From NCBI GenBank assembly GCA_049240945.1, contig JBMLRQ010000021.1, forward strand, positions 42,616 to 106,615: a stretch of DNA of 64,000 nt, written 5' to 3'. The DNA comes from Rhabdochlamydiaceae bacterium (lineage in GTDB: Bacteria; Chlamydiota; Chlamydiia; Chlamydiales; Rhabdochlamydiaceae). Under the pieces are notes generated by a model. That model was not told the DNA's origin. It saw only the letters and a list, made by a program, of their open reading frames with translations, and did not search any database. Shown in pieces: positions 60,789-62,701 of this stretch. Within the stretch, counting starts at the first letter, position 1, and every line of letters starts with the position of its first letter. Both the position numbers and the translations under genes were made by a program.

Positions 60789-60801
60789 ATAATTTAAATA
60801 A

Positions 60802-62697
60802 ATGAAACAAAAAACAATAAGAAATTTTTTCGCTTTTTTCTCTATTCTTTTAAGCCACTCAGCTCTTCTTGTGCATTTAAAGGCTGATTCACCTCATTTG
60901 AGTCCATTAAATGTGAATGCGATATTTCCGTCTCTTTTAGATAAAAACGTTTATCAAGTTTCAGAAGAAAAATCTGAATATAATCGACTGGATTTGAGTG
61001 GATTGAATTTTAGATTTGGTGACTTAACATCAATCCCATTAGATAATTTGCAAATATTCGATCTTTCATATACTAATATTTCAGCCAAGCAACTTTATCA
61101 ATTATTGAAAGCTTTCCCTCGTATTAAGAGTTTAAATCTTTACGAATGTAAAGGCTTAGGAGCGTGCTTTCTTGCTTTAACTCCTAAATGCTTGAATAAT
61201 TTAGAATATATAAATCTCTCTGGCTGCGATTTTTGGATAATGGAATTTAAAAAATTGTTCAACGCTGCCCCATGTTTAAAACGTCTTGAATTAAAAATGG
61301 ATTCAAGCTGGGATTCTTTCCTTTTCTTTCTAGCGCCCAACATAATGCCTAATTTGGAGTACATTAGTTTTTCTTTATCTCAGCCTATTGAGTATTACGG
61401 TACACTCGACATTTTATTCAAATCGGCTCCTTCTTTGAAAGAGCTTGATCTATTTGGGGTTTCTTGTGCTTCTTTACATATAAACCTAGAAGCTGATTCC
61501 TTATCTCATTTAGAAAAAATAAATCTCGGTTTTTGTGATTTGAGCTTAAACAACTTTTTTATTCTAATGAAAGCATCTCCTTACTTAAAAACACTTGATT
61601 TAAGTTGTAATAAAGGATTGAATCTTTTCTTTTCTTCTCTTAAGCCTTTAAAATTAAAACGTTTAGAGTCGATCAATCTTTCTTCTTGTTATCTATCCTC
61701 TTCAGAGGTCATCTCTTTACTTAAAGCTGCTCCCCATCTTAAAGATCTCGATTTAAGTGAACAGCGTGATTTAGATCTGATATTTCATCCTTTTCAAGAA
61801 CTTTTTCTTCCTCAATTGGAAAAACTGTCTTTGAATAGTTGCGGTATATCGAAAAGCCTTTTAGCCTCTATTTTTAGAATAGCCCCTAACTTGAAGGAAT
61901 TGTCTTTAAATGGCTGTCAGGGTTTAAACCAAGTTTTTGATAAATTATTTGTTGGTGGTGTGACAAAACTGGAATCGGTCCACCTCGTGAACTCCGATAT
62001 AGAATCAATTGGTTTTAATAAATTAATAGACATAGCTCCTCATTTGAAACAAATAGATTTAAATGGTTGTATATACATAAAAGATCTTCTGATCAATGAA
62101 TCTGTTGTAACAAACTTACAAGAAATTTGGTTAATGGATGCTAATTTGTCTTCTGAAGATATATATAGATTATCTAAAATGTCTCCTCATTTAAAAAATC
62201 TATATTTAGGTGATCACGAGGATTTAGATGGGCTGTTTAATGATTTACCTGACAACTCACTCAATCAATTGCAAAAACTGTCTCTTATTTCTTCTAAACT
62301 GTCATCCCAAACTTTGAAGCGTTTATCAAAAGTAGCCCCCAATCTTAAAGATCTTGATTTAACCTCTTGCTTAAATATCGAAGCCTGTTTTAATGAAGCC
62401 GAAAGTTATTCATTAGATCAATTAGAGGTCCTCCATATTACGAATACTGAGATCGCTATTAAAAAGCCTGTTTTTTTAAAAAAATTCGCCCCCAACCTCA
62501 ACCACCTTAATTTTAGAAAATTAACAAAAGCGTATCGGGTCTTCGATTTAGTTAAACTAGAAAAAAGTACACAAGATTTATACTTCGTTTGGGGATTATT
62601 ACATTTGGGTGTAAAATCCTCTGCTTTAAACGATGCTTTATTGAAGAATAAAGGGGCTTTATACAGTTTATTAAATTCAATTAAATATAAGGAGTAA
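60802..62697 (+). CDS. Signal-peptide-bearing leucine-rich repeat protein (about 10 Cys-containing, RNI/FBXL-type double repeats) embedded in the V-ATPase operon
   Basis: The N-terminus is FFAFFSILLSHSALLVHLKA. A unit of about 50 aa recurs from roughly aa 80 to 560, with consensus L..L(E/K).I.LS.C.LS......L.KAAP.LK.LDLS.C..L. An example is LESINLSSCYLSSSEVISLLKAAPHLKDLDLSEQRDL. The gaps are 13 nt to the atpI stop and 4 nt to the atpK start. Confidence 0.8.
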   Translation: MKQKTIRNFFAFFSILLSHSALLVHLKADSPHLSPLNVNAIFPSLLDKNVYQVSEEKSEYNRLDLSGLNFRFGDLTSIPLDNLQIFDLSYTNISAKQLYQLLKAFPRIKSLNLYECKGLGACFLALTPKCLNNLEYINLSGCDFWIMEFKKLFNAAPCLKRLELKMDSSWDSFLFFLAPNIMPNLEYISFSLSQPIEYYGTLDILFKSAPSLKELDLFGVSCASLHINLEADSLSHLEKINLGFCDLSLNNFFILMKASPYLKTLDLSCNKGLNLFFSSLKPLKLKRLESINLSSCYLSSSEVISLLKAAPHLKDLDLSEQRDLDLIFHPFQELFLPQLEKLSLNSCGISKSLLASIFRIAPNLKELSLNGCQGLNQVFDKLFVGGVTKLESVHLVNSDIESIGFNKLIDIAPHLKQIDLNGCIYIKDLLINESVVTNLQEIWLMDANLSSEDIYRLSKMSPHLKNLYLGDHEDLDGLFNDLPDNSLNQLQKLSLISSKLSSQTLKRLSKVAPNLKDLDLTSCLNIEACFNEAESYSLDQLEVLHITNTEIAIKKPVFLKKFAPNLNHLNFRKLTKAYRVFDLVKLEKSTQDLYFVWGLLHLGVKSSALNDALLKNKGALYSLLNSIKYKE

Positions 62698-62701
62698 AAA
62701 G

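Follow-up and report, generated by a model that had tools for sequence, protein, structure and literature searches.

How did a gene for a leucine-rich-repeat (LRR) protein come to lie inside a V-type ATPase operon, and does its product have anything to do with the pump? The question is raised by a window of 64,000 nucleotides (the whole stretch of DNA analyzed here) from contig JBMLRQ010000021.1 of a Rhabdochlamydiaceae metagenome-assembled genome (MAG), in which the V-type ATPase operon runs E-DUF2764-A-B-D-I-[LRR]-K, all on the + strand. This order, as well as the size of the LRR open reading frame (ORF), the spacers around it and the coordinates of the atpK ribosome-binding site, had been given by an original prediction made from the letters of the window, and all of them were correct when re-read from the sequence. 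Our literature search found no description of an LRR gene within a chlamydial V-ATPase operon. We lean towards the reading that a lineage-specific LRR gene was seamlessly inserted at the most permissive junction of this operon, where it is probably co-transcribed with the atp genes and encodes an exported protein-binding module. The location, seen in one genome, is unusual for an LRR protein of an intracellular bacterium, but explicable.

An eighth gene in a conserved operon

The inserted gene (locus tag ACOVOR_02480; 60802-62697, +) is an intact ORF reading from an ATG at 60802 to a TAA at 62695-62697; its 631-aa product matches a protein of the MAG exactly and is recognized by Pfam LRR models. 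A 13-nt spacer consisting of A and T only, ATAATTTAAATAA (60789-60801, +), separates it from atpI, the gene of membrane subunit I (a-subunit homologue; 58971-60788, +; NCBIfam PRK05771.2-5, 8e-168, and alignment). On its other side, the TAA is followed after 4 nt by the ATG (62702) of atpK, the last gene of the operon, encoding the proteolipid c-ring subunit (62702-63124, +; NCBIfam PRK09621, 6.8e-54).

The operon was compared with 80 species-representative Chlamydiota V-ATPase loci and two looked-up loci, covering Rhabdochlamydiaceae, Simkaniaceae, Waddliaceae, Parachlamydiales, Anoxychlamydiales and others; 81 loci contained both atpI and atpK. Between the stop of atpI and the start of atpK lay a median of 14 nt, and 68 of the 81 loci had no more than 40 nt there; none of the 81 carried an LRR gene at this junction. 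The adjacency of I and K, as stated in the original prediction, is indeed the chlamydial rule. Searching with the LRR protein by tblastn gave no match within 6 kb of atpI in any compared locus. In the two nearest relatives atpK starts 2-5 nt after atpI, and the lineage is an isolated one, the closest atpI proteins among 5.8 billion clustered sequences being 44-46% identical. The window keeps all seven genes of the canonical chlamydial operon (atpE-DUF2764-atpA-atpB-atpD-atpI-atpK) intact, in order and tightly packed; what sets it apart is the additional, unrelated gene, the eighth of the operon, that separates I from K.

The six operon junctions of the 81 loci were interrupted only by duplications of K, by one TnpB gene and by one sulfatase-domain gene. 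Tandem atpK duplicates follow directly 3′ of atpI in three loci (L006, 8195-9178; L017, 7959-9253; L022, 7963-8973). In a further Rhabdochlamydiaceae MAG (L037, contig DATIJE010000094.1), an IS605 OrfB/TnpB-type gene (7972-8718, -; PF01385, 2e-25; PF07282, 1.8e-19) stands directly after the atpI stop, and no atpK was found in the remaining 1 kb of that contig. Insertions were rare at the other junctions, with one 2.6-kb case between atpB and atpD (L054). The operon is therefore very stable, and its last junction, between I and K, is the place where changes are tolerated. Of the two options offered by the original prediction, a family member landing in a permissive junction or recruitment as an accessory factor of the ATPase, the first is preferred, because the gene is absent from relatives, matches no V-ATPase family and sits at a junction that also tolerates K duplications and a TnpB gene; the second is unlikely.

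Two of the compared loci deserve a separate description. L024 has atpK copies at 7953-8372 and 10718-11137, the second one 2.3 kb downstream; together with the three tandem duplications, this suggests that the copy number of the proteolipid gene has changed repeatedly. The gene between atpB and atpD of L054 (2061-4424, +, CAYGHT010000015.1) encodes 787 aa, among them a Sulfatase domain (PF00884, 5.5e-49), and G+C-rich inverted repeats lie on either side of it (~1975-2025 and ~4436-4512); the C-terminus of its product resembles cysteine-containing LRRs (LRR_14, 6e-4, below threshold), while its similarity to the LRR protein of the window is generic (E = 0.008). L054 offers another, independent case of a guest gene in the V-ATPase operon of a chlamydia.

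The insertion is seamless, in that both neighbors and the translation signal of atpK are intact. The C-terminus of atpI (...GKLFDPLKKIK*) is complete in comparison with relatives, and atpK retains the conserved N-terminus MDYAMIGPALVLGL... and encodes a protein 57-78% identical to the atpK proteins of relatives. The Shine-Dalgarno sequence of atpK, AAGGAG (62689-62694, +), coincides with the two sense codons AAG GAG that precede the stop of the LRR ORF. In 26 of the 81 relatives this signal is part of the final codons of atpI, frequently in the form ...AGGAG-TAA, 3-7 nt and ATG, and the AAGGAG-TAA-AAAG-ATG that closes the LRR ORF has the same layout; AAGGAGTAA followed by 4 nt and ATG corresponds to the end of atpI in relatives. 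That the LRR ORF captured the ancestral tail of atpI is suggestive only: in comparison with several relatives the shared motif AGGAGTAA is conspicuous (control fraction <= 0.04), but in comparison with the three closest it is not, and it is also explicable because a Shine-Dalgarno sequence is functionally needed for atpK. Furthermore, 18 nt at the end of atpI (60767-60784; TCCTTTGAAAAAAATAAA, encoding PLKKIK) match the LRR DNA at 61506-61523 and 62040-62057 with 83% identity, where the recurring motif HLEKIN / HLKQID is encoded; this match may represent recombination microhomology or AT-rich chance. Remnants of an atpK duplicate or of an atpI tail were not found in the insert (all tblastn E > 0.1), the ORF list contained no transposase ORF there, and the gene does not look like the passenger of an insertion sequence (IS) or transposon.

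By composition the gene is at home in its surroundings. Its GC content of 0.318 falls between those of atpD (0.314) and atpE (0.329), with 0.361 for the window, making it slightly more A+T-rich than its genome; GC1 exceeds GC3, as is typical for genes of this genome, and its synonymous-codon likelihood (z = +0.27) corresponds to native codon usage. At the local base composition ~7.6% of random codons would be stops, and according to our own calculation the chance of a 631-codon open frame is ~1e-22.

Domain structure and fold of the LRR protein

Three Pfam LRR models matched the protein above their gathering thresholds (cut-off ~27 bits), namely LRR_4 (PF12799) with 58.6, LRR_At5g56370 (PF24758) with 53.9 and LRR_At1g61320 (PF23622) with 43.1 bits, which bears out the original reading of the ORF as an LRR gene. 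F-box, BTB, RING, NTPase or other Pfam domains were not detected in it (E <= 0.01), and since Pfam and NCBIfam returned LRR models only, no homology to subunits of V/A-type ATPases was found. About 20 cysteine-containing LRRs of 25-26 aa each are paired as ten 51-aa (153-nt) double units, with the unit consensus LE.I.LS.C.LS......L..AP.LK.LDL..C.GL...F..L. At the DNA level the repeats form a family with ~153-nt spacing and 60-80% identity, and the structural positions of LRRs (L..L.L..C/N and AP.LK) are kept in all ten diverged double units.

The AlphaFold model, computed from a small family alignment, reached a pTM of 0.73. Residues 61-571 (60982-62514, +) were modeled as a confident solenoid (pLDDT mostly 75-95) of 20 beta-strands alternating with helices, a solenoid that is also borne out by the DNA repeats, the unit alignment and Foldseek. 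Residues 1-60 and 572-631 were of low confidence; the C-terminal 60 residues (62515-62694, +) are predicted to be helical without LRR pattern (pLDDT < 50), and no homologue aligns past about residue 585. The top Foldseek matches were ribonuclease inhibitor (RI), NLRP, TLR and the F-box receptors TIR1 and COI1, with probability 1.00 to RI, NLRP and TLR, and the sequence matches in the PDB were the LRR of NLRP1 (3e-05) and FBXL2 (4.5e-04). Taking motif, profile and predicted fold together, the protein is assigned to the cysteine-containing, RI/FBXL-like class of the LRR superfamily; Pfam, PDB, AlphaFold and Foldseek all agree here with the RNI/FBXL-type repeats of the original prediction.

The N-terminus consists of MKQKTIR (K2, K4, R7), the hydrophobic residues 8-26, NFFAFFSILLSHSALLVHL, and KA/DS (in context HLKA/DS), and the hydropathy profile marks the first 28 codons (60802-60885, +) as a candidate signal segment. 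Comparable N-termini occur in short members of the family, such as P0265 (...FSLAQFSITKA/DSD), P0129 and P0226. In charge and hydrophobicity the segment follows the pattern of a Sec signal peptide or a signal anchor, export is plausible, and both "signal-peptide-bearing" and "host-interaction-type", as the protein had been labeled, are better regarded as inferences from its sequence.

Relatives of the LRR protein

An exhaustive HMMER search over 1.84 billion representative proteins revealed a family of 1035 proteins (E <= 1e-3), of which 30 reached E <= 1e-30 and none was more than ~37% identical. It was HMMER that found this family; word-indexed searches with the protein and with the family alignment returned only the LRR protein itself and generic eukaryotic LRR proteins. 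An orthologue was found neither in 5.8 billion clustered proteins nor in the JGI metagenomes. The second-best match in the family (P0126, 1519 aa) is ACOVOR_05285 of the same MAG, and hence the genome holds at least one distant LRR paralogue.

Many matches are 2000-2700 aa long, carry this LRR module close to the N-terminus and have P-loop domains of the AAA/STAND type at the C-terminal end; named members of the family include WP_133130735.1 of Legionella yabuuchiae, Legionella sp. MAG proteins and a "Verrucomicrobia" MAG protein. The best array matches (E to 1e-68, 29-37% identity) were to such giant LRR+AAA/STAND-NTPase proteins of Legionella and Chlamydiota (for example WP_133130735.1 and, from Legionella sp., MDR3442794.1), which share the 51-residue unit L..LE.I.LS.S.IS...L..LL.AAPNLK.L.L..C.NL, but in which a conserved non-LRR N-terminal domain and a C-terminal P-loop NTPase accompany the repeats, whereas the protein of the window is the LRR module alone. 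P0125, P0127, P0130, P0131 and P0260 have a conserved non-LRR N-terminus, MFPQ.FY...T..V.TG.L.DPLDL....PW..., which is without Pfam annotation, occurs among others in giant LRR+AAA/STAND-NTPase proteins and is absent from the LRR protein of the window. A role in a known defense system was also considered and discarded, as PADLOC gave no match for the LRR protein or for two giant relatives. Judged by these similarities, the LRR module is common to amoeba-associated intracellular bacteria, which fits the LRR expansions documented in environmental chlamydiae (Domman et al. 2014, PMC4209131), in line with the original prediction, as well as the Legionella affinities noted for the LGR proteins of Protochlamydia (Eugster et al. 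2007, PMC2216083).

Two LRR families have been described in chlamydiae, and on sequence features the protein belongs to neither of them. The NEX1/PEX1 proteins of Neochlamydia and Protochlamydia (PMC4209131) are likewise chlamydial, lineage-specific and fast-diverging, with variable numbers of eukaryote-like LRRs, a presumed role in host interaction and an origin by duplication and relocation (PMC4209131). In these proteins, however, the LRRs are C-terminal and joined to an N-terminal F-box, RING/U-box or BTB domain, and their genes often form tandem arrays, whereas the protein of the window contains no such domain, starts with a signal-like N-terminus and is encoded by a single copy in a housekeeping operon; it does not have the makeup of an F-box/BTB/RING-LRR mimic of ubiquitin ligases. 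The LGR proteins of Protochlamydia amoebophila (lgrA-F, PMC2216083) are also chlamydial, their arrays grew by concatenation of adjacent units, and their closest LRR relatives are, as here, found in Legionella and among eukaryotic RI/NOD-type proteins (PMC2216083). An LGR, however, is 1500-2000 aa long, is the product of a G+C-rich gene and carries RI-type repeats of 28 residues at its C-terminal end (PMC2216083), whereas the LRR protein has 25-26-residue repeats in a 51-residue double unit, 631 aa and an A+T-rich gene (GC 0.318), so that it is neither large nor G+C-rich in its gene and lacks the 28-residue C-terminal repeats of an LGR. Eukaryotic RI, NLRP1, FBXL2 and TIR1 share fold and repeat class with it, but at 14-20% identity, and the protein of the window is bacterial, without NACHT, F-box or TIR domain, and has an export-type N-terminus.

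The ORF at 4546-7071 (-), which had been proposed as a paralogue within the window, did not hold up as one, having no Pfam LRR match, nothing by phmmer and only 27% identity over 84 aa by BLASTP. This ORF (841 aa, without any Pfam match) begins 4 nt beyond the stop codon of a gene for an oppF-like ABC ATPase (7076-8119) and ends an oppBCDF-like operon (9906-10835, 9017-9916, 8022-9020, 7076-8119); like the LRR gene, it is a large, lineage-specific ORF closely attached to a conserved operon.

Transcription and translation of the LRR gene

The layout of the locus is that of an operon member: the LRR gene is on the same strand as its neighbors, with spacers of 13 nt and 4 nt and no intervening terminator or promoter. 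Downstream of atpA, the sole terminator-like hairpin on the + strand is located after atpK (63137-63166, followed by a T-run), which is where scan and folding put it and where the original prediction had seen the first terminator-like hairpin. It is part of a bidirectional intrinsic terminator (63137-63176, both strands; terminator scan and folding) with a 13-bp stem, a 4-nt loop and T-runs on both strands, and its fold is far more stable than shuffled sequences (z = -4.63; 0/200 as stable). Sigma-70-like matches numbered 32 against 36.3 expected from shuffles, none of them at either junction, and Rfam had no match in the operon. The earlier view that no signal uncouples the gene from the atp genes therefore stands, given spacers of 13 nt and 4 nt that leave no room and junction scans that were negative.

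Since the essential proteolipid ring is the product of atpK, for which there is no separate promoter, the LRR gene has to be read through, and co-transcription is the most economical account because polymerase must cross the LRR gene to reach atpK. The LRR gene is thus most likely co-transcribed with the atp genes, as far as sequence signals can tell. V-type ATPase genes are induced mid-cycle in Protochlamydia (PMC5451489), and a co-transcribed LRR gene would follow this mid-cycle atp program.

Translation is another matter. As originally noted, the LRR start has no obvious Shine-Dalgarno sequence, and comparing leaders confirmed that it has no purine-rich leader either, atpE being the only other operon gene of this kind; atpK has a strong leader (AAGGAG) and atpA, atpB, atpD and atpI have weaker ones. 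The RNA around the LRR start is less folded than shuffles (z = +1.6) and unstructured. With no Shine-Dalgarno sequence and an unstructured A/U stretch of 13 nt between it and the atpI stop, the LRR start probably supports little translation, arising either from re-initiation or from leader-independent initiation.

It is also conceivable, though in our estimate unlikely, that the LRR gene is expressed independently, with an undetected promoter in the 3′ part of atpI (or one for sigma-28 or sigma-54) driving it together with atpK as a unit regulated apart from the other operon genes. Such a promoter could be sought in a weak sigma-70-like match with TG extension inside atpI (60208-60235) or in two 9/12 matches at 61019-61074, especially as consensus scans predict chlamydial promoters poorly. 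Nevertheless, promoter-like sites are fewer than shuffles would give, there is no site near the junctions and no terminator upstream, and the two spacers leave no intergenic space. An internal promoter and the account preferred here are not mutually exclusive.

Origin and role of the inserted gene

Taken together, these data are consistent with the following course of events. In this lineage only, a gene of the LRR family, which to judge by its composition is native or has long been resident, would have entered the operon at the end of atpI, sparing the atpI C-terminus and stop as well as the ribosome-binding site and short spacer of atpK. Carried since then on the atp mRNA, it would be weakly translated into a horseshoe of ~20 LRRs behind a signal-like N-terminus, a protein-binding module exported across the inner membrane. 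The protein would act at the envelope, the inclusion or the host interface, and would not be a subunit of the ATPase.

Several points weigh against this reading. The gene is known from one genome only; its internal repeat units (pN 0.51, pS 0.71) are saturated and old and say little about constraint. The insert shows no clear IS-like terminal repeats, target duplication or inverted repeats, only AT-rich matches at chance level, and a close donor paralogue was not found, so that the mechanism of insertion is not visible. A sigma-70 consensus captures chlamydial promoters poorly, so that the 3′ part of atpI may contain a promoter after all. Finally, the hydrophobic segment, at ~19 residues, is long and could anchor the protein in the membrane of subunits I and K.

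A more skeptical view would regard the gene as a neutral hitch-hiker that arrived by illegitimate recombination, is transcribed only through the read-through to atpK, is barely translated and is decaying without selected function. The gene is indeed a singleton, with no orthologue in the protein and metagenome collections searched, it is one of the two operon genes (with atpE) that have no purine-rich leader, and the low-confidence termini of its product may be non-native sequence. A decaying gene, however, would hardly keep a frame of 631 codons fully open at 32% GC, nor retain the LRR structural positions in ten diverged units and a confidently modeled solenoid, and its fully ameliorated codon usage implies long undisrupted residence. 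We therefore regard this view as improbable.

Recruitment to the ATPase itself seems far less probable still. The protein would then be anchored by its N-terminal helix beside I and K and assemble with, or regulate, the membrane sector. The gene stands exactly between two membrane-sector genes, tightly coupled and without signals of its own, its product has a hydrophobic stretch long enough for a signal anchor, and the ORF is intact with native codon usage, all of which an accessory factor could explain. But it is absent from 81 otherwise highly conserved operons across the clade, its product resembles no V/A-ATPase subunit family, its homologues are LRR modules of unrelated giant proteins or short secreted-looking proteins in Chlamydiota and Legionella, none of them found next to atp genes, and atpI and atpK show no distinctive changes in comparison with the closest relatives that lack the LRR gene. 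We give equally little credence to the boldest form of this idea, a periplasmic membrane-anchored accessory of the V-ATPase, of which a host-targeting LRR effector wired to the mid-cycle, energy-parasitism program of the ATPase is the weaker variant.

The weakest alternative, that metagenomic reads were misjoined at the locus, is suggested by the MAG origin of the sequence and the internal repeats of the gene, but is very unlikely, because two assemblies from different pipelines, the 138.6-kb MAG contig at NCBI and a 20.3-kb Logan contig from SRR32601174, are 100% identical over 13,199 nt including both junctions, because a chimera would need two breakpoints placed exactly inside the 13-nt and 4-nt spacers and sparing three ORFs, and because the internal repeats (60-80% identical) are too diverged to mislead an assembler, while composition and codon usage of the gene match its flanks.

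Other genes and features of the window

The genes flanking the LRR gene were identified as E, DUF2764, A, B, D, I and K by Pfam and NCBIfam, several of them at chlamydia-type equivalog models. The operon begins with atpE for subunit E (53905-54531, +; NCBIfam PRK01005, 2e-59; Pfam vATP-synt_E), followed by the DUF2764 accessory gene (54521-55231, +; Pfam DUF2764, 2.1e-10), which is a conserved member of chlamydial V-ATPase operons, occupies the same position in relatives and has an uncertain start, the gene call on the Logan contig beginning 12 nt further downstream. Then come atpA for the catalytic subunit A (55253-57034, +; NCBIfam PRK04192, 5.5e-228), atpB for subunit B (57048-58346, +; NCBIfam PRK02118, 1.3e-217) and atpD for the central-stalk subunit D (58367-58981, +; NCBIfam PRK02195, 3.5e-55), which overlaps atpI by 11 nt.

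Upstream of atpE, the region from the transaldolase gene to atpE (53024-53904) contains one minus-strand ORF (53185-53505, 106 aa), with a hydrophobic N-terminus, a transmembrane-like segment in its C-terminal part and no Pfam match; in L001 and L002, the two nearest relatives, this region is occupied by four small genes on the minus strand. Only weak 9/12 sigma-70-like matches, at 53499 and 53682, were seen upstream of atpE, and the operon promoter was not located. At the other end, the terminator at 63137-63176 is common to atpK (+) and a convergent PAP2-family gene (63153-63905, -), whose stop codon sits inside the hairpin region. At gathering threshold, Rfam recognized nothing in the 64-kb window except three tRNA genes (28981-29054, 39246-39317 and 40583-40655).

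Implications

What is known of V-ATPases and of chlamydial effectors would remain unchanged by this gene unless its product were an accessory factor of the pump, in which case it would represent, in a prokaryote, the equivalent of eukaryotic V-ATPase accessory proteins. The locus is noteworthy for the seamless colonization of an operon, for the parallel guest gene in L054 and for a family with 51-residue units that is shared with Legionella. The gene points to a widespread, unnamed LRR module of 51-residue double units in Chlamydiota and Legionella, including giant LRR+NTPase proteins, and its own product is predicted to be expressed together with the V-ATPase in the mid-cycle replicative stage. 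The locus provides a clean natural example of how, in an obligate intracellular bacterium, an expanding family of repeat proteins can colonize a conserved, essential operon without breaking it.

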